From NCBI GenBank assembly GCA_046754165.1, contig JBHHVG010000054.1:1-11543 (forward strand): a stretch of DNA of 11,543 nucleotides. Direction: 5' to 3'. The position numbers and the translations under genes were made by a program. Under the pieces are notes generated by a model that did no database searches, was not told the DNA's origin, and saw only the letters and a list, made by a program, of their open reading frames with translations. Source of the stretch: Myxococcota bacterium. GTDB taxonomy: Bacteria > Myxococcota_A > UBA9160 > SMWR01. Of this stretch, positions 109-11,204 are shown piece after piece; the stretch's first letter is position 1, and every line of letters begins with the position of its first letter.

Positions 109-888
109 TCACTTCGACTGCTTGAAGAGGGGAAGGTTCGCCTCGGTGGCGACATAGATCACGTTGGGGTTGTCGTTGAGCGTCTTGATCCAGAGGTACT
201 GGAGGTAGGAGTCCGAGAGCGTCGACCGGACGATCTCTTGCGCGCGGGCGGCGCCCTGTGCGCGCGCGACCTCGATCTCGGCGTCCTTCTCGGCCTGCTG
301 CAGCAGGAACTGCTTCTGTTGCACGGCCTGCTCCGCGGTCAGCTTCGCCTCGATGCTCTCCCGGAAGCGCGAGGGGAGCTTGACGTCCCGCAGCAGCACG
401 TCTTCGACGCGAATGCCTCGAGGCTCGAGGTTGACCGTCAGGAACTCCTTGATCTTCGCCGCGATCTCCTTGCGCCCGACCTCGGAGTAGATGTTCTTGA
501 CCGGGTAGCCGCTCACGACGTCGCGCACCGCGTTCCGAAAGTAGGGAACGACGAGGATGTCCACGTAGTTCCAGCCGACTGTCTTGCGGATCGTCGGCGC
601 CTCCTCCGCGACGACCCGGAAGAGCAACGAGGTGTCGAGGCCCACGATCAGGCCCTCGGAAGACGGCACCTGGGCCGTCTCCTTGAGCTCCTGGAGCTTG
701 ATGTTCCAGGTCTCGATCGTGCGGACCACAGGGAACTGCAGGGCGACCCCCTGCTCCACCGGGTCGTCGGAAATGGATCCGAAGCTCTTCGTCACACCGA
801 CTTCACCATCTTCGATCACGACGCAGCCGGATACCAGCGTCAGCGCTGCGAACAGACCCAGGGCGATGATGGGGGTCAAACGATTCAT
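109..888 (-). CDS. SPFH / band-7 (prohibitin/HflC-like) domain lipoprotein, 259 aa
   Basis: This is the C-terminal part of six-frame ORF 109..2577(-). The ATG is at 888-886, preceded on the minus strand by GGAGGAGGG with a 5-nt spacer. The N-terminus MNRLTPIIALGLFAALTLVSGC is a signal peptide ending in the lipobox LVSGC. The body is an SPFH-like beta/alpha domain followed by a coiled-coil-like tail rich in E/A/Q (AEQAVQQKQFLLQQAEKDAEIEVARAQGAARAQEI), as in HflK/C and prohibitins. The stop TGA (revcomp TCA) is at 109-111. The 5' extension of the ORF beyond 888 is an R/G/A-rich shadow frame overlapping the GT gene. Confidence 0.85.
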   Translation of the reverse strand: MNRLTPIIALGLFAALTLVSGCVVIEDGEVGVTKSFGSISDDPVEQGVALQFPVVRTIETWNIKLQELKETAQVPSSEGLIVGLDTSLLFRVVAEEAPTIRKTVGWNYVDILVVPYFRNAVRDVVSGYPVKNIYSEVGRKEIAAKIKEFLTVNLEPRGIRVEDVLLRDVKLPSRFRESIEAKLTAEQAVQQKQFLLQQAEKDAEIEVARAQGAARAQEIVRSTLSDSYLQYLWIKTLNDNPNVIYVATEANLPLFKQSK

Positions 889-901
889 GGAGTCCCTCCT
901 C

Positions 902-929
902 CGAAAGGCCGATTGAATCTCGCCTTTCG
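902..929 (-). other. Intercistronic stem-loop: 8-bp perfect stem CGAAAGGC / GCCTTTCG with a 12-nt loop. It lies between the GT stop (939-941) and the SPFH Shine-Dalgarno sequence.
   Basis: Read directly: 902-909 cgaaaggc and 922-929 gcctttcg are reverse complements. On the minus-strand mRNA the hairpin ends 1 nt 5' of the GGAGGAGGG ribosome-binding site of the SPFH gene. No U-tract follows, so it is not a canonical intrinsic terminator. It is more likely an mRNA processing, stability or translation-modulating element. Confidence 0.25.
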
Positions 930-938
930 CGCCGGAGC

Positions 939-2609
939 TTACCGCACCAACGCGTCGGAGGGTGGTCGCGTGCGATCTCGCCGGCGAAAGACAGCAATCC
1001 AGGCTGCTCGGTCCGCCTGCTTCCAGGCCAACGGCATCAATCCCGTCGCCTCCGCGCCGCCCGCGAATACGTATCCGTCGCCGTCCGCTGCCGGATGGGC
1101 CACGAGCTCCACGCGATAGGCGCGCTCGAGCATCCGTCGGGTGTGCGTGAAGATCGAGTCTGGTGCCCTCGCCAGCGCGCCGGGCGCCGCTGGGGCGGCG
1201 GAGAGAGAGGTCGCCACATTGACCCAGACCACATAGAGGGGACGCGCCGCGTCCACCTCGGCCGCGACCGTGCGCTGGCGTTCTGGCGCATCCGGGAACG
1301 GCCCCGTGAGGGGGTAGAAGAAGATGTAACGGGAAGCGCTCGGACGACCGGCGTAGAACAGGATCTGTGGCTCGGAGCCGACCACGAAGACCCGATCGTC
1401 CGGATCGCTGCGGCTGCGGATGTGTTCTGCAATCCGCAGCGATTCTGGAAACGGGTTCCCGCCGTAGAGGATGCGGGCGATCCGTTCCGGCGTGTCGGCC
1501 GACAGGATCCAGGCGTTCGCGGCGACCGGCGGACCCACGGCGATCGCGACCAGGGCCCCGAGGCCCAGCACCGCCGCGCCCACGTGCCTTTCGTCGAGCC
1601 ACCGGCACGCCAGGCCACCGAGCGCCACCCCGCCCAAGGCCGCGAGGGACGGCAGCATCTGGATGAAGTAGTGGGGGCGAAAGTACAGCCCCGGCGCGAC
1701 GCCGGCGGCGGATGCCAGCAGCCACAGGCCCAGGAACCAGCGGCTGCGACCCGCACGGCCCGGCGCCATCAGGCCCAACGCGGCGGCGCCCGCGAAGGCC
1801 CCCATGCTCGGCCAGAGCACGCCCGCCGCGTTGACGAGCTCGCTCCACCCGGCTGCGGGCGAGCGGACCAGCGCGTAGCGGAAGTTGTGGAGGAGCACGG
1901 CATCGACGAAGGGGGACCAGGCACCGAGCCATGCGAACAGCCCGAGAACCGGCGCGATCACCGCCACGCCGCCCGCCGCGAGAGCCGCGATCGCGCGCAG
2001 GCGTTCGCCCGGGACGCGGCGCAGCGACGCAAACGCGATCGCCGCGACGAAGGCCGCGTTCGCGACGGCCACCTGTTTGAACAGGCACGCAGCGGCCGCA
2101 GTAGCGCCGCACAGCAGCCACCACCGGGAGGAAGACCCCGCCTCGATCGCCCGCAGCAGACAGAACACGGACGCCACCATCGGCAGCAGCATGAAGATCT
2201 CGGTGTTGGCGGCATTTGCGGTGAGGCGCGGATCGGCGCTCGCCACCGCGAAGATCAGGGCCGCGAAGGCGCCGCTCAAGGATCCGGCGAGTCGTCGCAC
2301 GAGCGCGAACAGCAGCGCGGCGGTCGCGGCGCTCCAGACGTGAAGAAAGAGATGAATGCCCTCGCTGGTCTCGCCGAACGCCGCGAAAGCCACGAGGTAT
2401 GCGACGAAGACTCCTGGCGGCTTCTGGTCGAAGACGTCGCGGTATGGGACATCCCCCGCCTGCATGCGCTGGGCGATATACGCGTACTCGCCCTCGTCGC
2501 GCTCGAGCGGCACCGGGAGCAGCGGAACGCGCAGCAGGATGAAGACCGTGGCCGCGACCGCGAGCACCGCCGCACACGCCCAGAGCGTGGGGGCCGTCTC
2601 CTCCCTCAC
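939..2609 (-). CDS. GT-C fold glycosyltransferase, PMT_2 / ArnT-like family (GT39/GT83; polyprenyl-phosphate-sugar dependent). Multi-pass membrane protein, about 556 aa from the proposed GTG start.
   Basis: Six-frame ORF 939..2783(-). The first TM helix (TLWACAAVLAVAATVFILLRV) is followed in the first extracytoplasmic loop by the GT-C catalytic acidic motif ERDEGEYAYIA and the K-P-P motif (FDQKPPGVFVAY) typical of PMT_2/ArnT proteins. There are about 11 or more further hydrophobic helices and a C-terminal soluble domain. The TAA stop is at 939-941. The start is uncertain. The ATG at 2783 would overlap the divergent lipoprotein gene (2681->) by about 100 nt. I favour the in-frame GTG at 2609-2607 (Val59 of the ORF), which is 8 aa before TM1. 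Confidence 0.8.
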   Translation of the reverse strand: MREETAPTLWACAAVLAVAATVFILLRVPLLPVPLERDEGEYAYIAQRMQAGDVPYRDVFDQKPPGVFVAYLVAFAAFGETSEGIHLFLHVWSAATAALLFALVRRLAGSLSGAFAALIFAVASADPRLTANAANTEIFMLLPMVASVFCLLRAIEAGSSSRWWLLCGATAAAACLFKQVAVANAAFVAAIAFASLRRVPGERLRAIAALAAGGVAVIAPVLGLFAWLGAWSPFVDAVLLHNFRYALVRSPAAGWSELVNAAGVLWPSMGAFAGAAALGLMAPGRAGRSRWFLGLWLLASAAGVAPGLYFRPHYFIQMLPSLAALGGVALGGLACRWLDERHVGAAVLGLGALVAIAVGPPVAANAWILSADTPERIARILYGGNPFPESLRIAEHIRSRSDPDDRVFVVGSEPQILFYAGRPSASRYIFFYPLTGPFPDAPERQRTVAAEVDAARPLYVVWVNVATSLSAAPAAPGALARAPDSIFTHTRRMLERAYRVELVAHPAADGDGYVFAGGAEATGLMPLAWKQADRAAWIAVFRRRDRTRPPSDALVR

Positions 2610-2680
2610 CGCGGCATCGGATGCGGCCGTCACGAGCCGAGGAGCTCCATCGAGAGGGATGCTAGCCTCTTCGCTCCAAG
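2610..2680. promoter_or_regulatory. Short divergent intergenic / promoter region between the GT-C gene (-) and the AP-superfamily lipoprotein operon (+)
   Basis: It is about 70 bp between the proposed starts. It contains the 8-bp palindrome GGAGCTCC (2641-2648) and an imperfect dyad GCATCgGATGC (2614-2624). The GAGGG at 2653-2657 is a possible ribosome-binding site, but its 23-nt spacing to the 2681 ATG is longer than typical. No -10/-35 assignment is attempted in this GC-rich context. Confidence 0.3.
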
Positions 2681-4105
2681 ATGGCGGAAGCGCTCCTCCG
2701 TTCGACTGCACCGGGTAGGACCCAACGGCTCCTACTCTCCCTCCCGCTTCTGCTGGTCGGCTGCACTGGAACGCCTCCGGCACCCCGGATCCTCTTGCTC
2801 GTTAGCGTCGACACCCTGCGCGCGGACCACCTCGGCGCCTACGGGGGCACACTCGGCCTCAGCCCGCGCATCGATGCACTGGCCCTCGAGAGCCTCGTCT
2901 TCGACCGGGCGTACGCCCCGACCTCGTTCACCATGCCGTCCATCAGCAGCCTTCTGACCGGGCGCTACCCGGAGGAGATCGGCGTGCTCGGCAATCGATC
3001 GGCGCTCGCGCCGGACATTCCGACCCTCGCCACCGTGTTGCGAGATCACGGATGGGCGACCGCGGCGGTCGTGAGCAACCTGGTCCTGCGCGCCAACTCG
3101 GGCTTGAGCGAGGGTTTCGATCACTACGACGATGTGCTTCCGGGCCGCGAAGCCACGCGTGAATGGTCCGAACGCATCGCCTCGGGCACGACCGACGCCG
3201 CCATCGACGTCCTCGAGGCACTGCCCGCCGACGAGGACACGCGGCTCTTCCTGTGGGTTCACTACCAGGATCCCCACGGACCCTACACGCCGCCCGATGG
3301 GCTGCGCGAGGCGCTGCTCCCGGAGCAGCGAAGACGCCCGGAAGGCCTGCGCCGCCTGACGCCGGCCGAGGGACGCGGTGTTCGCGGGCGGCTCCCGGCC
3401 TACCAGGAGATCGACGGACAGCGCGAGGTCGCCTTCTACCGCGCGGGATACGCCGCCGAGGTGCAGTATCTCGACCGCGAGTTCGGACGACTGCTCGACG
3501 CGCTCTCGGCTCGCGGGCTTGGCGACACGAGCCTCATCGTCTTCACCGCCGACCACGGCGAGAGCCTCGGTGAGCGGGATTACTGGTTTGGCCACGGCGA
3601 GCTGTTGACCGATCCGCTCGTGCGCGTTCCCCTGATGCTGCGGATCCCCGGAGGCGATGCGGGCCGGCGTTCGGATCTCGTGGCCCAGGTCGATCTCTTC
3701 CCCACGCTGCTGCATCTCCTGGAGGGGGTGGCGATCCCCGCCGACGCACGCGGCCGCGACCTGCTGGAAGCCGATGCAGGCTCCGTGGACAGTCTCCCCT
3801 ACCTGGCCAGCCTCGCGAGCTTCCACACCGCGCGATTCGGGATCGTCCTGGGAAATCACAAGCTGATCCTCGTCGAAACCGAACGCGGCTGGCGCCCGGA
3901 GCTGTACCGCCTGGGGCACGAAGACCGCGAGCTCTCCGATCTCGACCCGGAGCGCACCGAGCGCATGCGCGCCGAGCTGCTGGGGCTGCAGGCCGAGCTC
4001 CAGACCGGGCGGCGGGAGAATCTCCAGCGCTTGAGCGACCGCGATCGAAGAAACCTGGAAGCGCTCGGGTACACCGAGAAGCTTTTGGATCCGGGAGTCG
4101 ATTGA
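2681..4105 (+). CDS. Alkaline-phosphatase-superfamily 'sulfatase-like' (PF00884-type) periplasmic lipoprotein, 474 aa. Thr replaces the Cys/Ser formylglycine nucleophile, so it is probably a phosphoester hydrolase/transferase rather than a true sulfatase.
   Basis: The N-terminus MAEALLRSTAPGRTQRLLLSLPLLLVGC has the lipobox LLVGC. The metal-binding block ILLLVSVDTLRADHLGAYGG aligns with the sulfatase N-terminal block (xxLIxxDDLGxxDLGCYG). The nucleophile region PTSFTMPSISSLLTGRYP aligns with sulfatase C-x-P-x-R-AALLTGRYP, but has T-M-P-S-I in place of C-x-P-x-R. Downstream blocks WVHYQDPHGPY and FTADHGESLGERDYWFGHGE correspond to the conserved K/H and DHG metal-site blocks of the superfamily. 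The TGA stop is at 4103-4105. Confidence 0.85.
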   Translation: MAEALLRSTAPGRTQRLLLSLPLLLVGCTGTPPAPRILLLVSVDTLRADHLGAYGGTLGLSPRIDALALESLVFDRAYAPTSFTMPSISSLLTGRYPEEIGVLGNRSALAPDIPTLATVLRDHGWATAAVVSNLVLRANSGLSEGFDHYDDVLPGREATREWSERIASGTTDAAIDVLEALPADEDTRLFLWVHYQDPHGPYTPPDGLREALLPEQRRRPEGLRRLTPAEGRGVRGRLPAYQEIDGQREVAFYRAGYAAEVQYLDREFGRLLDALSARGLGDTSLIVFTADHGESLGERDYWFGHGELLTDPLVRVPLMLRIPGGDAGRRSDLVAQVDLFPTLLHLLEGVAIPADARGRDLLEADAGSVDSLPYLASLASFHTARFGIVLGNHKLILVETERGWRPELYRLGHEDRELSDLDPERTERMRAELLGLQAELQTGRRENLQRLSDRDRRNLEALGYTEKLLDPGVD

Positions 4106-4112
4106 CGGCGCC

Positions 4113-5537
4113 ATGTCCGCACCTTGCCCGTCCGTCCGGAAGCGCCGATCCGCCCCCGCGCGGATCCGCGCCACGCTGGCCGCGTTCGTTCTCCTGCCCG
4201 CTTGTGCGGGTGAACCGGCGCGACCGAACCTGCTGCTGTTGATCACCGTGGACACGCTGCGCGCAGATCGCCTCGGCGCGTTCGGAAGCTCTCTGGGCCT
4301 CACTCCCAATCTCGACGCGCTCGCCGCCCGAAGCGAAGTGTTCACCGCCGCCTATTCCTCCGCTCCCTTCACGCTTCCGTCCGTCGCCGCGATGATGACG
4401 GGCGCCTCCCCAGAAGAGCTCGGCATCGTCGACAACGAATCGGTGCTCCAGGAGACCTTCCCGACACTCGCGTCCATTCTGTGGGAACGCGGCTGGACCA
4501 CCCGGGGCATCGTGGGAAACTTCATTCTGCGCCACAGCAGCGGTATCGACCGGGGCTTCGAACAGTTCGACGACGACTTCGGCCAGTTCGAAGCGGTGCG
4601 GAAGCTGCCGGAACGCGTCGCGGTTTTCACCACCGAAGGCGCCTTGTCCGGACTCGACCAGTGCTCCGCGGCTCCGGCGACACGCTGTTTCATCTGGGTC
4701 CACTACCAGGACCCCCACGGACCCTACACGGCACCGGGAGAGATCCTCGATGCAGAGCTCGAACGGGGGATCGAGCCGCCGGTGCCGAATCCGAACGTTC
4801 CACTGTCGAAGGACCACCTCGGGGTGGGCGGGCTTCCGACCTATCAGGTGCTCGGCGACCACCGCGACGCCGCCTACTACGTCGCGGCCTACCACGCCGA
4901 GATCCGATACGTCGACCGCGAGATCGGACGACTGCTGGACGGGCTCGCGACCCGCGGGCTCGACGCCAGCTCCGTGATCGCGTTCAGCTCGGATCACGGC
5001 GAAGGCCTGGGCGAAGACGACTACTGGTTCGCCCACGGCGAGTACCTGAGCGACGCATTGGTCCGGGTGCCGCTCATGATCCGGGTCCCCGGACGCCCGC
5101 CTGCGGTGCGAACCGACGTGGCCGCGCTCACGGATCTACCCAAGACACTGCTGTCCGCGGTCGGAGCAACCGCACCGGTGCCGCCGCTGGCCGGCCGGGA
5201 CCTGCTCGGCGACGGCGCCGAGAATTCCGAGAGCCGACCCTACATGGCGAACCTCATCGGAGCGACCGGGATCCGCTTCGGGATCGTCGAAGGGGAGTAC
5301 AAGCTGGTGATCACGATGCGCGACGGCGTCTGGGACGGGCGCCTGACGCGCCGCGGCCGCGACGCCATCGACCTCGCCGGAGCGGCCCCCCAGGTCGCCG
5401 CTCCGATGCGCAAGCACCTGAAGCAGATCCGCGCACGCGTGTCCCAGGGGCCGTCGGAGGTCCGCCAGGACCTGTCCACGCAGGACCGCGACGCCCTGCG
5501 CGCCCTCGGTTATCTCGAATCCGCGGAGGGCCGGTGA
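4113..5537 (+). CDS. Second, tandem paralogous AP-superfamily 'sulfatase-like' lipoprotein, also 474 aa, with Thr at the nucleophile position
   Basis: The ATG is at 4113, 7 nt after the upstream stop. The N-terminus ...ATLAAFVLLPACAG has the lipobox LLPAC. The same blocks are present: LLLLITVDTLRADRLGAFGS, APFTLPSVAAMMTG (T-L-P-S-V at the nucleophile site), WVHYQDPHGPY and FSSDHGEGLGEDDYWFAHGE. It is roughly 45-50% identical to the upstream gene over its full length, and both end in ...LGY(T/L)E.... The TGA stop is at 5535-5537. Confidence 0.85.
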   Translation: MSAPCPSVRKRRSAPARIRATLAAFVLLPACAGEPARPNLLLLITVDTLRADRLGAFGSSLGLTPNLDALAARSEVFTAAYSSAPFTLPSVAAMMTGASPEELGIVDNESVLQETFPTLASILWERGWTTRGIVGNFILRHSSGIDRGFEQFDDDFGQFEAVRKLPERVAVFTTEGALSGLDQCSAAPATRCFIWVHYQDPHGPYTAPGEILDAELERGIEPPVPNPNVPLSKDHLGVGGLPTYQVLGDHRDAAYYVAAYHAEIRYVDREIGRLLDGLATRGLDASSVIAFSSDHGEGLGEDDYWFAHGEYLSDALVRVPLMIRVPGRPPAVRTDVAALTDLPKTLLSAVGATAPVPPLAGRDLLGDGAENSESRPYMANLIGATGIRFGIVEGEYKLVITMRDGVWDGRLTRRGRDAIDLAGAAPQVAAPMRKHLKQIRARVSQGPSEVRQDLSTQDRDALRALGYLESAEGR

Positions 5538-7765
5538 CATCTCGGAGCGGCGAGGGAACACCGCTTCGACGCGCACTCGCGGCGGGACGCTCCCGCGACG
5601 CCGCGATCGCCCTGGCCCTCTGCGCCCTCACCTTCGCCGTCTACTTCCAGGTGCGAAACCACGCGTTCGTCGACTACGACGATCGCGTGTACATCCTCGA
5701 CAACCCCAACCTGCGCGATGGACCGAGCCTGAAGACGATCGCGCGCTCGTTCCGCGAGCCCTACGAGACCAACTGGATCCCCCTGACGTGGGTCTCGCTC
5801 CAGCTGGATCACGCCCTGTTCGGCTCCGAGCCAGCGGGCTACCTGCTCGAGAACGTCGCGTTGCACGCGCTGTCGGCCCTGCTGTTGTACCTGGCGCTTG
5901 CGCGAATGACGGGCGCACGGTGGCCCAGCTGCTTCGTCGCCGCCGTCTTCGCGGTGCACCCCCTTCACGTAGAGAGCGTGGCGTGGGCCGCCGAGCGCAA
6001 GGACACGCTCAGCGGGATGTTCTGGATGGCCACCATGGTCGCCTACGCGCACCACGCCGCGCGTCCGGGGATGGGGCGCATGGCCCTGGTGGCGGCGAGC
6101 TTCTCGGCCGGCTTGATGGCGAAGCCCATGCTGGTCTCGCTGCCCCTGGTACTGCTGCTGCTCGACCACTGGCCGCTGGGCCGGCTCCGACGCGATAAGA
6201 GCGGAGCCTTCCCGCCGGCTGGCGGGCCGCGCCGCGTCCTGCTCGAGAAGCTCCCGCTGTTCGCACTTGCCGGCGCCGCGAGCGCCGTCACCCTCGCTGT
6301 GCAGCGCGCGGCGGGCGCGATGTCCCACGACCACCTGCTGCCGCTGTCGGTGCGGCTGTCGAACGCGGTGGTCTCGTACGCCGCCTACCTCCGCGACAGC
6401 CTCTGGCCGGTCGACCTCGCCGTCTTCTACCCGCACCCGCTCAGCCTGCCGCCGCCCGGGACGCTCCTGGTCGCGTCGTCGCTGCTGGTGGGGATCAGCG
6501 CGCTGGCCCTCCGCTGGGCCGGGACGCGGCCGTACTTCGCCGTGGGTTGGCTGTGGTTCCTCCTGACCCTCGTGCCGGTGATCGGAATCGTGCAGGCCGG
6601 CATGCAGGCCCGCGCCGACCGCTACACCTACCTGCCGCAGATCGGGCTGACGATCGCCGCGGCGTGGGGCGCGCACGAAGCCAGCCGCAGCAGGGCTCTG
6701 CGACGCGTTCTGGCCGCCGTAGGAGCCGGCGCCATCGCCGCGCTGGCGGTCACCGCGTGGAACCAGGTCGGACACTGGCGCGATTCGCGCGCACTGTTCG
6801 CCCGGGCGGTCTCTGTTACGCAAGACAACTTCGTTGCCCATCACGGGCTGGGTGAGGCGCTGCTCGAAGCGGGCGACCCCGAGGCTGCGCTCGCGCAGTT
6901 CCTTCGGGCCCGAGCGATCAAGCCGCGCTGGCCCGATGCCCGCGTCGGTGAGGCGGATGCTCGGCTGGCGCTTGGCCAGCTGGAGCCCGCGCTGGAAGGC
7001 TATCGGCGTGCCCTCGAGCTCGACCCGACGCACGCGACGGCGCTCGCGAAGTCTGGGCGGGCGCTCGCTGCGAGCGGACGGACGGACGAGGCGATCCAGC
7101 ACTACCGACGCGCCCTGCGTCTGTTCGGAGACGCCCCGCCGGCCGCGCTCCACGCCTACCTCGGAGCCGCGTTGGCCGACATCGGGGACGACGCCGGGGC
7201 CGAGCAGCAGTTCGAACGGGCGATCGCGATCCGACCGGATTACGCCCGGGCCCACCACTACCTGGGAATGATGCGGCTGCGGACCGGCCGGTTCTCCGAC
7301 GCCCGCGAGCCCCTGCGGATTGCCGCGTCCCTGCTCGGTGAGTCCGCGGAGCTGCACGCCAGCCAGGCTGCCGCCGCGCGTGGCGCCGGGGACGCCCGTG
7401 CCGCACTGGAGCATTACCGCGCCGCTCGGCGCCTGCGCCCGGGCTGGGAAGTCGCCGCGAACAACCTCGCCTGGATCCTCGCGACCCATCCCGACGCGAA
7501 CATCCGCGACCCAGCGGAAGCGGTCCGCATCGCCGAGACGCTCCAGCGCGCCGGTGGCGCGGCCGATCCGCTCCGGTACGACACGTTGGCCGCGGCCTAC
7601 GCGGCCGCCGGACAGTTCGAGCGCGCCGCGCGAACCGCGGCCGAGGCTGCCCGGCTGGCGCGCCGCGATGGTCCGGAAGACCTCATCGTCCAGATCGAGG
7701 AGCGCGCGGCCGGCTACCGGTCGAACCGGCCTTTCATCGATCCCGAGTGGCTCCGAGGCGACTGA
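5534..7765 (+). CDS. TMTC-like GT-C glycosyltransferase: N-terminal DUF1736-type multi-TM domain (about 400 aa) fused to C-terminal TPR repeats (about 340 aa). About 743 aa in total.
   Basis: This is the 3' part of six-frame ORF 4481..7765(+). Its first ~350 aa are an R/P/G-rich shadow frame overlapping the paralog gene. I propose GTG 5534-5536 as the start. It overlaps the upstream TGA (GTGA coupling), and GGAGG at 5525-5529 gives a 4-nt spacer. TM1 is AIALALCALTFAVYFQV. It is followed by the loop-1 acidic motif AFVDYDDRVYILDNPNL (the GT-C DD motif). Then come ...LLENVALHALSALLLYL... and FAVHPLHVESVAWAAERKDTL, the hallmark P-x-H-V-E-S-V-A-W block of DUF1736/TMTC proteins. From about residue 430 there are at least 8 TPR-like 34-aa units (e.g. 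AHHGLGEALLEAGDPEAALAQFLRARAIKP..., AHHYLGMMRLRTGRFSDA...). The TGA stop is at 7763-7765. Confidence 0.8.
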   Translation: MTSRSGEGTPLRRALAAGRSRDAAIALALCALTFAVYFQVRNHAFVDYDDRVYILDNPNLRDGPSLKTIARSFREPYETNWIPLTWVSLQLDHALFGSEPAGYLLENVALHALSALLLYLALARMTGARWPSCFVAAVFAVHPLHVESVAWAAERKDTLSGMFWMATMVAYAHHAARPGMGRMALVAASFSAGLMAKPMLVSLPLVLLLLDHWPLGRLRRDKSGAFPPAGGPRRVLLEKLPLFALAGAASAVTLAVQRAAGAMSHDHLLPLSVRLSNAVVSYAAYLRDSLWPVDLAVFYPHPLSLPPPGTLLVASSLLVGISALALRWAGTRPYFAVGWLWFLLTLVPVIGIVQAGMQARADRYTYLPQIGLTIAAAWGAHEASRSRALRRVLAAVGAGAIAALAVTAWNQVGHWRDSRALFARAVSVTQDNFVAHHGLGEALLEAGDPEAALAQFLRARAIKPRWPDARVGEADARLALGQLEPALEGYRRALELDPTHATALAKSGRALAASGRTDEAIQHYRRALRLFGDAPPAALHAYLGAALADIGDDAGAEQQFERAIAIRPDYARAHHYLGMMRLRTGRFSDAREPLRIAASLLGESAELHASQAAAARGAGDARAALEHYRAARRLRPGWEVAANNLAWILATHPDANIRDPAEAVRIAETLQRAGGAADPLRYDTLAAAYAAAGQFERAARTAAEAARLARRDGPEDLIVQIEERAAGYRSNRPFIDPEWLRGD

Positions 7766-9206
7766 TCTCTGCCCTCGACTCCCACAGCGAGCCGACACAC
7801 GCCATCACCAGGTTCACGACCAGCCCGATCACGCCGAGGTGGACACCTTCGATGCGCTTTACTCCCAGCACCACACCGCCCACCACGATCGCGCTGCCGA
7901 CCACCAGCCCGGCGAGGGCGGGGCGCGCCTTCAGCCGGCGCCAATGAATCGCCAATAGGAAGGCCGGGGCACACTGGATCAGGAGCTCCATCTTGAGTTC
8001 GATGAGCCCCCACAGCGTGATGCCCCGCGCCCACATGGCGAGCCCGGCCATTGCGACCATCACCACCGCGGCAATCCGCTTGCCCGCCGCGGTGGTCGCG
8101 TCATCGTCTCGCGGGCGATCGAGAACGTCGCCCGCCAGTGTCGAGCCCAACGACAGCAGGCACGAATCCGCGGTCGACATGATCGCGGCCAGCGCACCCA
8201 GGAAGACGAAGGTCGCCGCCGCCGCGTGGGCGGTTCCGGCGTCCGCCCACTGCCCGAGCAGCAGCGGCATCACGCGATCCGCCTCGACCACCCCAAGGCC
8301 GGACAGGCGCGGAATCGCGGCCCAGCCGATCCAGGTGACGACGAGCGTGGTCGTGAGCGGCATGAACGTCATCAGCGCGAGCGAACGGCGCAGGGTCGCC
8401 CCGTCGCGCGCCGCGTAGATCCGTTGGATCGCCTGGGGATAGATCACGCTTGCGATTCCCAGCAGCACGATGGTGCTCGCCCAGTTCGTCTGCTCCACGA
8501 TGCCCGGCACGCGCCCGACCTCGGGCCGAACCTCGAGGACCGCGCGGGTAACCGCCCCGACCCCACCCGCCTCCGCCTGCAGCCACGCCGCCAGCGCCAT
8601 CAGACCCACCAACATCATCACGCCCTGGGCGGCGTCCGTCCAGGCGACGGCGCGCATCCCTCCCAACGTCTCGTAGAAGAGGATCATGGCCGCCAGGATG
8701 ACGATGCCGAGCTCGTAGGGGATGGCGCCGCCCGTCACCTGTGCAGCGAGCTCGCCCATGGCCTTGAGCTGGGCGAAGAGGAAGTTGGCCAGCGCGATCG
8801 ACATCAGCACCGCGACGCCCTGCAGCAGGCCCTTCGCGCCCGGTTCGCCCCGAAATCGGTGTCGCACCCAGTCGCCCGGCGTCACGAACCGATGCCGGAC
8901 AGCCACGGGACGGAGCTTCGGCACGAGCGAGTGGAAGACGACAATGATCGACATCATGAACCCGGTCGCCATGACCCACGAGTAACCGCGGCGGTACCCC
9001 TCGCCCGGGTAGCCGAGCAGCGAGTTCCCGCTGTAGGCGGTGGCGTAGAGCGTGAGGAAGAGCACGAATACGCCGAGCTCACGACCACCGAGGAAATGAT
9101 CGGCAGGCGCGTTGCCACGCCGCGCACGGCGCGCGAACTCCGCGATCGCGAACAGCAGCAGCAGGTAACCCGCGAGACCGACGAGGCCCAGCTGCTCGAG
9201 CTTCAT
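7734..9206 (-). CDS. Sodium:solute symporter family (SSF, TC 2.A.21) transporter, 490 aa. Substrate unknown.
   Basis: There are about 13 hydrophobic helices. The N-terminal region DHFLGGRELGVFVLFLTLYATAYSGNSLLGYPGEGY matches the SSF signature region of PutP/PanF-like transporters (D-x-F-L-A-G-R-x-L-G ... S-G ... G-x-P-G). The ATG is at 9206-9204, with GAGGAG about 15 nt upstream on the minus strand. The stop is at 7734-7736. The gene overlaps the convergent TMTC-like gene end by about 32 nt. Confidence 0.85.
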   Translation of the reverse strand: MKLEQLGLVGLAGYLLLLFAIAEFARRARRGNAPADHFLGGRELGVFVLFLTLYATAYSGNSLLGYPGEGYRRGYSWVMATGFMMSIIVVFHSLVPKLRPVAVRHRFVTPGDWVRHRFRGEPGAKGLLQGVAVLMSIALANFLFAQLKAMGELAAQVTGGAIPYELGIVILAAMILFYETLGGMRAVAWTDAAQGVMMLVGLMALAAWLQAEAGGVGAVTRAVLEVRPEVGRVPGIVEQTNWASTIVLLGIASVIYPQAIQRIYAARDGATLRRSLALMTFMPLTTTLVVTWIGWAAIPRLSGLGVVEADRVMPLLLGQWADAGTAHAAAATFVFLGALAAIMSTADSCLLSLGSTLAGDVLDRPRDDDATTAAGKRIAAVVMVAMAGLAMWARGITLWGLIELKMELLIQCAPAFLLAIHWRRLKARPALAGLVVGSAIVVGGVVLGVKRIEGVHLGVIGLVVNLVMACVGSLWESRAEISRLGATRDR

Positions 9207-9442
9207 CGCGGCCCGGGCTCCTCGGGCGAATCATCGTCCGATACTTCGGCGAGCAACCAGGCGGCGGCGTTCAGCACGGCGACCGCCGCGTAGCAGAGGA
9301 TCGCGACGGCGACCCAGTCGGGGAGGCCATGCCATAGGCGCACCTCCGCGCCGGGGGAGCGGTACCACGGAATCGACACGACGTAGAGCACCGCGATCAC
9401 CGCGAGCAGCGCGCGGCGAAGCTGGCGTCGACCCCGCGTCAC
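9203..9442 (-). CDS. Small two-TM membrane protein (DUF3311-like accessory protein of sodium:solute symporters), about 79 aa
   Basis: This is the C-terminal part of six-frame ORF 9203..9985(-). It has two clear hydrophobic helices, LLAVIAVLYVVSIPWY and WVAVAILCYAAVAVLNAAAWLL, and an acidic tail. Its TGA (9205-9203) overlaps the symporter ATG (9206-9204) as ATGA. The proposed GTG start at 9442-9440 overlaps the SRAP TGA (9441-9439) as GTGA. The alternative ATG at 9487 would give 94 aa and overlap SRAP by 49 nt. The upstream remainder of the ORF is R/G/P-rich shadow sequence. The DUF3311 assignment rests on size, topology and position next to an SSF gene, not on a recognisable motif. Confidence 0.55.
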   Translation of the reverse strand: MTRGRRQLRRALLAVIAVLYVVSIPWYRSPGAEVRLWHGLPDWVAVAILCYAAVAVLNAAAWLLAEVSDDDSPEEPGPR

Positions 9443-10131
9443 AACAGCGATCCCTGGGTGGGCGCCGGAGCGGCCGGAAGGACACATTCTGGGCCGTCGT
9501 TTCGCACGTCGTTCACCATTATTCCCACCGTCCAGGCCGACAGCCACGTCTCCGGACAAGGCGCGAGCAGCGCGCGCATCGCCTGCAGATCGCCACCCTC
9601 GGTTTCGAGCCACGGCGCGTACGCCTGGGGATCCACGATCACCGGCATCCGCTGGTGGATCGGCCGCACCACCGCGTTCGCCACGGTGGTGACGATCGTG
9701 CACGACCGGATCTCCTCGCCATCCGGGGAGATCCAGCTCTCCCAGAGACCGGCGAGGGCGAACAGCGCTCCGTCCGTCCGGGCGACGTGGACCGGCTGCT
9801 TCGGGGGCTCCGTCCCGGACCACTCGTAGAAACCGTCGGCCGGGATCAGGCAGCGCCGTGCTCGAAAGGCGCCGCGGAAGGCCGGCTTCTCCGCGATCGT
9901 CTCCGCCCGCGCGTTGATCAGGCGGTTCCCGATCGACGGGTCCTTCGCCCAGGCGGGGATCAGACCCCAGCTGTGGAGAGCGCACACGCGTCTGCTCCCC
10001 TCGGCACGGATCACGGCGACCGGCTGACCGGGAGCGATGTTGTAACGTGCCTCCAGCTCGGGCGGCAGATCGAGTCCGAATTCATCGGCCACGCTTTCCG
10101 GTGACGCGCGCAATGTGAATCGCCCGCACAA
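9439..10131 (-). CDS. SOS-response-associated peptidase (SRAP / YedK / HMCES-like) abasic-site processing protein, 230 aa
   Basis: The N-terminus is (M)CGRFTL..., with the invariant Cys2 nucleophile. Conserved core blocks are present: NIAPGQPVAVIR, FRARRCLIPADGFYEW (catalytic Glu region) and VANAVVRPIHQRMPVIV (catalytic His). The initiation codon is TTG (10131-10129, revcomp CAA). It has a strong GGAGG ribosome-binding site with a 9-nt spacer on the minus strand. The TGA stop is at 9441-9439. Confidence 0.85.
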   Translation of the reverse strand: MCGRFTLRASPESVADEFGLDLPPELEARYNIAPGQPVAVIRAEGSRRVCALHSWGLIPAWAKDPSIGNRLINARAETIAEKPAFRGAFRARRCLIPADGFYEWSGTEPPKQPVHVARTDGALFALAGLWESWISPDGEEIRSCTIVTTVANAVVRPIHQRMPVIVDPQAYAPWLETEGGDLQAMRALLAPCPETWLSAWTVGIMVNDVRNDGPECVLPAAPAPTQGSLL

Positions 10132-10193: not shown

Positions 10194-11204
10194 TTGAGCG
10201 ATTCCACAGAACGCGCCCGCGTTGGCGGCAAGCTGTCGGTCGTGCTGCGCGGCGCCCTGGGCGGCACCTTGATGGGTCTCGCCAACCTGGTGCCCGGCAT
10301 CAGTGGCGGCACGATGTTGCTCGCCGCGGGCGTCTATCCGGGTTTCATCGAGGCGATCGCAGACCTCACGACCTTCCGCTTCCGCCTGCGGCCCGTGCTG
10401 CTGCTGGGGACGATCGTCGCGGCGGCCGCCTTCGGCATCCTGTTGCTCGCGGGCACCGTCAAGTCCCTCGTCGTCGAGCACCGCTGGATCATGTACAGCC
10501 TGTTCATTGGCCTGACCCTGGGCGGCGTGCCGCTGGTGTGGCGCATGGCGCGCCCGGCAACGCCCGCCCTCTCTGCCGGCTGCGTCGTCGCCTTCGGTCT
10601 CATGCTCGCGATGGCCCTCGGCGGCCCGGCGGCGAGCGCCGGGGGGACCAGCATGCTCCTGACGTTTGCGGCCGGTCTCGCCGCCTCCTCTGCGATGATC
10701 CTGCCCGGCGTGAGCGGCGGCTACCTGCTGCTCCTGCTGGGCCAGTACGAGACGATCTTGGGGACCGTCGATCAGCTCAAACGGGGGCTGCTCGGCGACG
10801 GCGCCGCCGGGCCCGACGTGTCGCTGGTCCTCGACGCCATGACCGTGGTGCTCCCCCTCGGTCTCGGCATCGTGGTCGGCGTGGCCGGCGTGAGCAATCT
10901 GCTGAAGTGGCTGTTGCACCGCTACGAGAAGGCGACACTCGGGGCCCTTCTGGGCCTGCTCTTCGGAGCGGTCATCGGACTCTGGCCCTTCCAACAGGGA
11001 ACCACTCCGGAGATCGGAGACACGATCAAGGGCCGAGTCGTCGCCGAGGACAACCTCGCGGAGTTCGCCCCGGAGGACTGGCCGGTGCGGAGCTTCGATC
11101 CCAGCTTCGGACAGGCCGCCGGAGCCGCGGGACTGGTCGTCCTGGGACTGTCGGCCACGCTGCTGATCGGTCGCCTCGGCGGTGGAGATGGAGACGCGGC
11201 CTAG
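10194..11204 (+). CDS. DUF368 family membrane protein (PopT-like polyprenyl/undecaprenyl-phosphate translocase family), 336 aa
   Basis: The TTG start is at 10194, with GGGGAG 7 nt upstream. There are two internal repeats of the DUF368 signature: LRGALGGTLMGLANLVPGISGGTMLLAAG in the N-terminal half and SAMILPGVSGGYLLLLLGQYE in the C-terminal half. This matches the inverted-repeat architecture of the family. There are about 8 or more hydrophobic helices. The TAG stop is at 11202-11204. Confidence 0.85.
   Translation: MSDSTERARVGGKLSVVLRGALGGTLMGLANLVPGISGGTMLLAAGVYPGFIEAIADLTTFRFRLRPVLLLGTIVAAAAFGILLLAGTVKSLVVEHRWIMYSLFIGLTLGGVPLVWRMARPATPALSAGCVVAFGLMLAMALGGPAASAGGTSMLLTFAAGLAASSAMILPGVSGGYLLLLLGQYETILGTVDQLKRGLLGDGAAGPDVSLVLDAMTVVLPLGLGIVVGVAGVSNLLKWLLHRYEKATLGALLGLLFGAVIGLWPFQQGTTPEIGDTIKGRVVAEDNLAEFAPEDWPVRSFDPSFGQAAGAAGLVVLGLSATLLIGRLGGGDGDAA

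Follow-up and report, generated by a model that had tools for sequence, protein, structure and literature searches.

Gene content of the locus

The DNA analysed here, hereafter the window, is one complete contig (11,543 bp; G+C content ~70%) from an uncultured bacterium of the Myxococcota. On its forward strand, two tandem genes of the alkaline phosphatase (AP) superfamily (PF00884) are followed by a gene for a protein in which a membrane domain of the GT-C type is joined to a C-terminal tetratricopeptide repeat (TPR) domain (Table 1). This TMTC-type protein is a further member of a known, very large and uncharacterised bacterial branch of the TMTC lineage. It is probably an inner-membrane GT-C glycosyltransferase that transfers a sugar from an undecaprenyl-phosphate-sugar to an acceptor, likely a protein, selected by the TPR domain. 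The gene map was made after removal of the shadow open reading frames (ORFs) typical for high-GC DNA, and the products of four window genes are identical letter for letter to NCBI MFQ5416154-56 and MFQ5416159.

Architecture and fold of the TMTC-type protein

Modelling with AlphaFold2 (AF2) and 53 aligned relatives gave a confident structure for the full-length protein (pLDDT 93.3, pTM 0.88) and for the membrane domain alone (pLDDT 90.8, pTM 0.91). The GT-C-like topology expected from the original prediction is present in the model as 11 transmembrane (TM) helices, and the roughly eight TPRs that had been counted correspond to 18 helices, or about nine TPR-like hairpins. Lys and Arg residues cluster in the N-terminal tail and in the predicted cytoplasmic loops; given this distribution and the odd number of TM helices, the TPR domain is predicted to be periplasmic and the N-terminus cytoplasmic.

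Searches with the full-length model in Foldseek returned TPR proteins only, which is why a model of the membrane domain by itself was built. Its best fold matches were Pmt4, STT3B, Pmt2 and AglB, consistent with a multi-pass membrane domain of the GT-C fold; no TMTC structure turned up among the solved structures. Sequence searches followed the same pattern, as only TPR models were found when the whole protein and its first 400 residues were scanned against Pfam and NCBIfam, a single-sequence search of the PDB likewise found TPR proteins and nothing for the membrane domain, and a profile of 18 membrane domains had zero matches among PDB sequences.

The relationship to TMTC is detectable by dedicated profiles. 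The TMTC1-4 N-domain alignment was taken from the supplement of PMC7801869, from which 12 sequences (human, zebrafish and fly) were used. A hidden Markov model (HMM) of these sequences matched the window protein with 74.4 bits (E 5e-25, single-sequence search) and all 18 relatives with 63-110 bits, while profile-profile alignment to metazoan TMTC1-4 with hhalign reached a probability of 99.7 (E 4.4e-27) over 374 of ~400 columns. By both results, the membrane domain is truly homologous to the TMTC domain over its full length, in agreement with the TMTC-like reading of the original prediction, and no Pfam GT-C model comes nearly as close to it.

Motif map and conservation

Motif names M1-M7 follow PMC7801869, and conservation figures refer to 156 family copies from 80 species-level genomes. 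The acidic motif in periplasmic loop 1, which had been likened to catalytic motifs, coincides with M1: D49 and D50 are invariant in the 53 close relatives and conserved at 96% and 95%, respectively, across the family. The loop-2 block HPxHxE...RxD (H142-P143...E147...R155-K156-D157) is also conserved (H142/P143 97%, E147 92%, R155 90%, K156 94%; D157 is Asp in 78% and Asn in 16%), and residues 139-157 as a whole follow the highly conserved pattern FAVHPLHVESVAWAAER(KD). Similar figures hold for K197 (98%) in loop 3, for R274 (92%) and Y285/P292/Y299 (97%), and for D362 (94%), R363 (87%) and Y366 (97%) in loop 5. At the M4 site, K197-P198...S202, the aligned Thr is Ser or Thr, and Pro198 is found in 75% of the relatives. 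Two motifs are not conserved: M2 (SHKSYRP, EL1) aligns with ETNWIPL and has only the Pro (P83) in common, and M5 (DW) aligns with P300-H301.

The loop-2 block had been described as the hallmark of DUF1736. It is instead the EL2/M3 block, and the DUF1736 model PF08409 had no match to the window protein or to the membrane domains of the 18 relatives even at E<=10. As a control, PF08409 matches human TMTC1 (E 5e-31) and TMTC3 (E 1e-31) ~135 residues downstream of the FAVHP block, so a real TMTC hallmark had been recognised under the wrong name.

The conservation pattern of the residues on the periplasmic face argues for an active enzyme. If the protein were instead an inactive scaffold or chaperone whose TPR domain holds periplasmic clients, the absence of the two residues proposed as TMTC metal ligands (the Glu of KE and the Asp of DW) and the lack of any Pfam GT-C match for the window protein would fit; TMTC1/2 were once regarded as ER adaptors. 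However, the DD, RKD, K197 and DRxxY positions are conserved at 87-98% in the 156 copies, across many phyla, and such conservation of donor and acceptor sites is hard to explain without catalysis; to our knowledge PMTs need no bound metal. An inactive scaffold is thus very unlikely. The loss of the two metal residues suggests that catalysis is independent of metal or relies on other ligands.

Table 1. Genes, domains, motifs and signals of the window, with those of the TMTC-type gene listed first
Feature	Position	Strand	Remarks
Putative TMTC-type GT-C glycosyltransferase gene with C-terminal TPR domain	5534-7765	+	743 aa; NCBI MFQ5416155.1
Shadow extension of the six-frame ORF, non-coding	4481..5533	+	351 R/P/G-rich codons; inside the upstream gene, other frame
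GGAGG, Shine-Dalgarno (SD)-like site	5525..5529	+	4-nt spacer to GTG
GTGA start/stop overlap with upstream AP-superfamily gene	5534..5537	+	GTG 5534-5536, TGA 5535-5537
Membrane GT-C domain	5534..6772	+	residues 1-413; 11 TM helices (~24-413); N-terminus cytoplasmic (predicted)
DYDD, periplasmic loop 1	5672..5683	+	residues 47-50; D49-D50 = TMTC M1 'DD' (TMTC1 D52/D53) (PMC7801869)
FAVHPLHVESVAWAAERKD, loop 2 and start of TM4	5948..6004	+	residues 139-157; = TMTC FAVHPIHTEAVAGIVGRAD; contains M3 'RxD' (R155, D157)
AKPMLVS, loop 3	6119..6139	+	K197 = Lys of TMTC M4 'KE(T/Q)xxT'; Glu replaced by Pro198
Y285-x6-P292-x7-P300, loop 4	6386..6436	+	DUF1736 position in TMTCs; TMTC 'DW' replaced by P300-H301
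ADRYTYLP, loop 5	6614..6637	+	= TMTC M7 'ERxxY' (D362, R363, Y366)
TPR domain, predicted periplasmic	6785..7720	+	residues 418-729; 18 helices = ~9 TPR-like hairpins (AF2)
AP-superfamily (PF00884) gene 1	2681-4105	+	lipoprotein; lipobox LVGC; FTMPSI
AP-superfamily (PF00884) gene 2	4113-5537	+	secreted enzyme; FTLPSV; stop overlaps start of TMTC-type gene
Second GT-C enzyme gene, PF13231 PMT_2	939-~2504	-	E 1e-13; start approximate; divergent from the operon
Band_7/SPFH gene	109-~1020	-	
SSF symporter gene	7734-9206	-	
Small hydrophobic membrane protein gene	~9203-9436	-	just upstream of the SSF symporter gene
SRAP gene	9439-10131	-	
DUF368/VCA0040-like gene	10194-11204	+	PF04018, 'undecaprenyl phosphate translocase-like'; MFQ5416159.1

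Translation start of the TMTC-type gene

The six-frame ORF that contains the gene spans 4481..7765 on the forward strand and would encode 1094 aa. The original prediction treated its upstream part as a shadow frame and placed the start at GTG 5534, and both claims are borne out. Along the junction, a G+C content of 80-94% is reached at third codon positions of the upstream gene until the scan interval starting at 5463, and at third codon positions of the TMTC-type frame from the interval starting at 5613. As the peak in third-position G+C (GC3) switches frames between these two intervals, the 351 upstream codons are in the wrong phase. In-frame ATG, GTG or TTG codons occur only at 4481, 4661, 5534, 5651 and 5687. 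A start at an internal codon was looked for, and the next in-frame candidate, 5651, would fall beyond TM1, while the N-termini of the relatives lie 0-35 residues ahead of TM1 and show no homology upstream of it. The NCBI gene call is exactly the product from 5534. Given the GTGA overlap and GGAGG site, the phase switch, the few in-frame starts, the relatives' N-termini and the NCBI call, GTG 5534 is the only usable start, and the call is as good as sequence analysis allows.

A different start, either a non-canonical codon nearer to TM1 or a frameshift fusion to the upstream product, would account for the shortness of the 4-nt spacer, for the SD-like site not being conserved in two orthologous loci (L082 and L084), and for an N-terminal tail that, at 23 residues, exceeds those of the two closest syntenic relatives. 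Tails of this length nevertheless lie within the family range, the relatives begin at the same overlapped position, and between 4661 and TM1 there is no ATG, GTG or TTG besides 5534; together with the change of GC3 phase at the junction and the identical NCBI call, this makes another start extremely unlikely.

Junction with the AP-superfamily gene

Four loci, the window, L001, L082/L083 and L084, are orthologous, as they have a common downstream order of SSF symporter, small protein, SRAP and DUF368 genes. In L082/L083 and in L084, the PF00884 gene is present once, shows 49-53% identity to the two copies of the window and ends four bases inside the TMTC-like gene (GTGA in L082/L083, TTGA in L084). 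L001 has no partner AP-superfamily gene, and its TMTC-like gene directly faces the orthologue of the window's PMT_2 gene. Start and stop thus overlap in the window, and the junction recurs in orthologues. The conservation of the 4-nt overlap in two orthologous loci supports co-expression; a fair reading is that AP-superfamily gene 2 and the TMTC-type gene are co-transcribed, with likely re-initiation at the junction, and they are probably translationally coupled.

The coupling proposed originally therefore stands as far as the overlap and its conservation go, while the matched stoichiometry drawn from it is not supported. Overlaps of 4 nt are the commonest gene junction in GC-rich operons, the SD-like site is not shared by L082 or L084, only one of the two AP-superfamily genes overlaps the TMTC-type gene (the tandem duplicate, gene 1, does not), and L001 lacks a partner. 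Nor does the pairing extend to the family. Of 80 genome loci, only 5 have homologues of the window AP-superfamily genes within 10 kb, and four other close relatives have unrelated neighbours; a family-wide sulfatase association was rejected on these grounds. The link is limited to one orthologous subgroup plus scattered neighbours of the Thr type described below.

AP-superfamily genes 1 and 2 are tandem paralogues (44% identity), whereas the relatives are single-copy. Alignments to choline sulfatase 7oz8 and arylsulfatase 6hhm, from which the nucleophile position was read, place Thr at the formylglycine position of both enzymes (FTMPSI and FTLPSV), and the Arg of the type I sulfatase motif (C/S)-x-P-x-R is replaced by Val or Ile. 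Since neither enzyme has the Cys or Ser and the Arg of that motif, the NCBI name 'sulfatase' is probably wrong for both, and they look like Thr-nucleophile phosphoryl-transfer enzymes of the alkaline phosphatase superfamily. The Thr-type PF00884 class includes LtaS, EptA, OpgB and BcsG, which place phospho-substituents onto glycans and lipids. Enzyme 2 had been called a lipoprotein, which is uncertain, as its lipobox (LLPAC) departs from the usual pattern and signal peptidase I would also be compatible with ACA|G. Thr-type relatives lie beside TMTC-like genes in L043 (a Pirellulales metagenome-assembled genome, there also with a PMT_2 gene), L041, L052 and L010, and in L081, where the relative has 656 residues and is membrane-anchored. 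This recurrence is suggestive but modest.

Neighbouring genes

All four orthologous loci keep the DUF368 gene in synteny with the TMTC-like gene. In the window it lies 2.4 kb downstream, and a role as a lipid-carrier recycling partner (PF04018) is possible. Genes similar to the window's PMT_2 gene, whose orthologue faces the TMTC-like gene in L001, are also found near TMTC-like genes in L043, L020 and L036. That the upstream PMT_2 gene of the window is a close paralogue of the TMTC-type gene was considered and rejected (hhalign probability 1.8%, from a single sequence and informative no further than that). In L082 (2436-5746) and L084 (1384-4674), two genes lie upstream on the same strand, encoding a NAD-dependent epimerase/dehydratase and an unusually long (~728 aa) PGM/PMM phosphohexomutase. 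Neither occurs in the window; where present, the two genes hint at a pathway for a hexose, which may be mannose. The copy in L088 has an exosortase EpsH gene as its neighbour, and that in L085 a sulfotransferase gene.

Several of these neighbours bear on whether the acceptor is a protein. The GT-C enzyme could instead decorate a glycan or lipid (exopolysaccharide, lipopolysaccharide or another envelope polymer), with the TPRs docking the AP-superfamily enzyme or export machinery. A second GT-C gene next door, the sugar-nucleotide genes upstream in L082 and L084, the exosortase and sulfotransferase genes and the recurring Thr-type PF00884 neighbours would all be in keeping with this. However, TMTC is the only family with significant sequence similarity, the best fold matches are all protein-glycosylating enzymes, and TfpW, the one characterised bacterial GT-C enzyme with periplasmic TPRs, glycosylates pilin. 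A glycan or lipid acceptor is less likely than a protein but a serious alternative.

Around the 3' end of the TMTC-type gene, the window shows a convergent 32-nt overlap (7734-7765) with the SSF symporter gene of the opposite strand; in L082 and L084, the overlap of this pair is 4 nt. The end of the small membrane protein gene overlaps the start of the symporter gene by 4 nt (9203-9206). This gene also occurs in L082 (77 aa) and L084 (80 aa), and its product probably serves as a small subunit associated with the symporter. The long ORFs at 5510-7798 (-), 109-2577 (-), 1095-2957 (+) and 8226-9293 (+), which are antisense or out of frame and reach 822 aa, are high-GC shadow ORFs; those scanned in full gave no Pfam match outside stretches in frame with a real gene.

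Size and distribution of the bacterial family

More than 8,000 clusters at 90% identity match the family, which is a lower bound, and there are more than 596 matches in species-representative genomes, from Myxococcota, Verrucomicrobiota, Planctomycetota, Desulfobacterota, Acidobacteriota, Nitrospinota and other phyla. A profile of the membrane domain matches 104,991 representatives at 50% identity with E<=1e-3, and 29,471 with E<=1e-30. The family is strongly paralogous, as 36 of 80 loci of at most 22 kb each hold two to seven copies. Most copies were seen in L055 (Planctomycetota, 7), followed by L067 (Geobacter) and L049 (Verrucomicrobiia) with 6 each; L039, L024 and L076 are among the other loci with tandem arrays, and the 80 loci hold 156 copies in all. 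Database names for family members are only 'tetratricopeptide repeat protein'.

Eisenhaber et al. 2021 (PMC7801869) had already pointed out that numerous poorly characterised prokaryotes have full-length homologues comprising transferase and TPRs; their single BLAST example is AMJ42_05695 of Deltaproteobacteria bacterium DG_8. Added here are the motif map, the predicted structure, the gene context and the family size. The single gene is an ordinary family member and by itself not surprising; the concrete lead that it offers is the conserved, overlapped AP-superfamily partner.

Human TMTC1-4 are O-mannosyltransferases of cadherins, mutation of TMTC3 results in cobblestone lissencephaly (both PMC7801869), and TMTC4 is a deafness gene (PMC10807715). 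Bacterial homologues have most catalytic-site motifs in common with TMTCs, and a tractable member would open a route to the structure and mechanism of the whole TMTC lineage, and a study of the family could reveal a widespread envelope glycosylation activity.

Proposed activity

As a TMTC-lineage glycosyltransferase, the window protein would have its active site on the periplasmic face, formed by D49-D50, H142-P143...E147...R155-K156-D157 and K197 of loops 1-3, R274, Y285, P292 and Y299-P300 of loop 4, and D362-R363...Y366 of loop 5. By analogy with the TMTC, PMT and ArnT families, the donor would be a single sugar on polyprenyl (undecaprenyl) phosphate, used at the periplasmic face. D49 and D50 would position and activate the acceptor hydroxyl, K197 and R363/Y366 would hold the donor phosphate, and the TPR superhelix would select the acceptor, most likely a Ser or Thr of a secreted or envelope protein. 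Undecaprenyl phosphate would then be released, and a DUF368-type translocase could return the carrier to the cytoplasmic side.

Several observations weigh against this activity, among them the missing metal ligands and Pfam GT-C match noted above. The loop at the DUF1736 position (TM7-TM8) is the least conserved part and not detectably conserved. PF13231 (PMT_2) has no match above the gathering score in the window protein, and yet matches 18 of 53 full-length relatives and, weakly, 4 of 18 membrane domains (best E 3e-6). The DUF368 gene is not in the transcription unit of the TMTC-type gene, and no gene for a polyprenyl-phosphate sugar synthase was identified in the window. A non-protein acceptor is conceivable, as TPR domains in the periplasm also act as scaffolds for polysaccharide export. 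Finally, in line with the original prediction, we found no functional study of a bacterial member in the literature library searched. Transfer of a sugar to a TPR-selected, likely protein, acceptor is the reading we prefer with these points in mind.

A bolder proposal pairs the TMTC-type transferase with the Thr-nucleophile AP-superfamily enzyme in a conserved periplasmic module of two enzymes, and regards the family as a large, unrecognised client-specific protein O-glycosylation system. We consider this unlikely. If true, the module would install a compound modification on selected envelope proteins or glycans, for example a sugar with a phospho-substituent or a glycosyl-phosphate. The massive tandem expansion in Verrucomicrobiota, Planctomycetota, Myxococcota and Desulfobacterota would then constitute this system, with TPR variants that pick the clients, and the bacterial family would be the root of the animal TMTC pathway.

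Comparison with known systems

Like the metazoan TMTC1-4, the window protein combines an 11-TM GT-C domain with TPRs that come after it and lie on the non-cytoplasmic side, and it has FVxxDD in loop 1, FAVHP(I/L)HxE(A/S)VA...RxD in loop 2, a Lys in loop 3 and (E/D)RxxYxP in loop 5. In contrast to them, PF08409 is undetectable, DW is replaced by Pro-His, the Glu of KE by Pro and SHKSYRP by (E)xNWIPL, the gene lies in an operon with an AP-superfamily enzyme, and the donor would be undecaprenyl- rather than dolichyl-linked. We know of no cadherin-type substrates in bacteria. With the prokaryotic TMTC homologues of PMC7801869, the window protein shares the combination of a sugar-transferase domain with TPRs and an origin in poorly characterised bacteria.

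The PMT family (yeast Pmt1/2/4 and actinobacterial Pmt) and ArnT likewise have an acidic pair in loop 1, and their donor is a polyprenyl-phosphate-monosaccharide. Unlike them, the window protein has TPRs in place of a MIR domain, no significant match to the Pfam PMT or PMT_2 models and an identity of only 11-14%.

Among characterised bacterial proteins, the one closest in architecture is TfpW of P. aeruginosa Pa5196/PA7, a pilin O-arabinofuranosyltransferase that transfers D-arabinofuranose (bioRxiv 10.1101/2020.04.19.049825). TfpW has 646 aa, a cytoplasmic N-terminus, 11 predicted TM helices and periplasmic C-terminal TPRs, together with an essential DDx motif and Y-x6-P-F-x7-P in periplasmic loop 4 (bioRxiv 10.1101/2020.04.19.049825). 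The tfpW gene lies directly downstream of pilA, whereas no pilin gene was seen among the window genes. Compared by published description rather than by sequence, the loop-4 motif of TfpW has its counterpart in the Y285-x6-P292-x7-P300 of the window protein.

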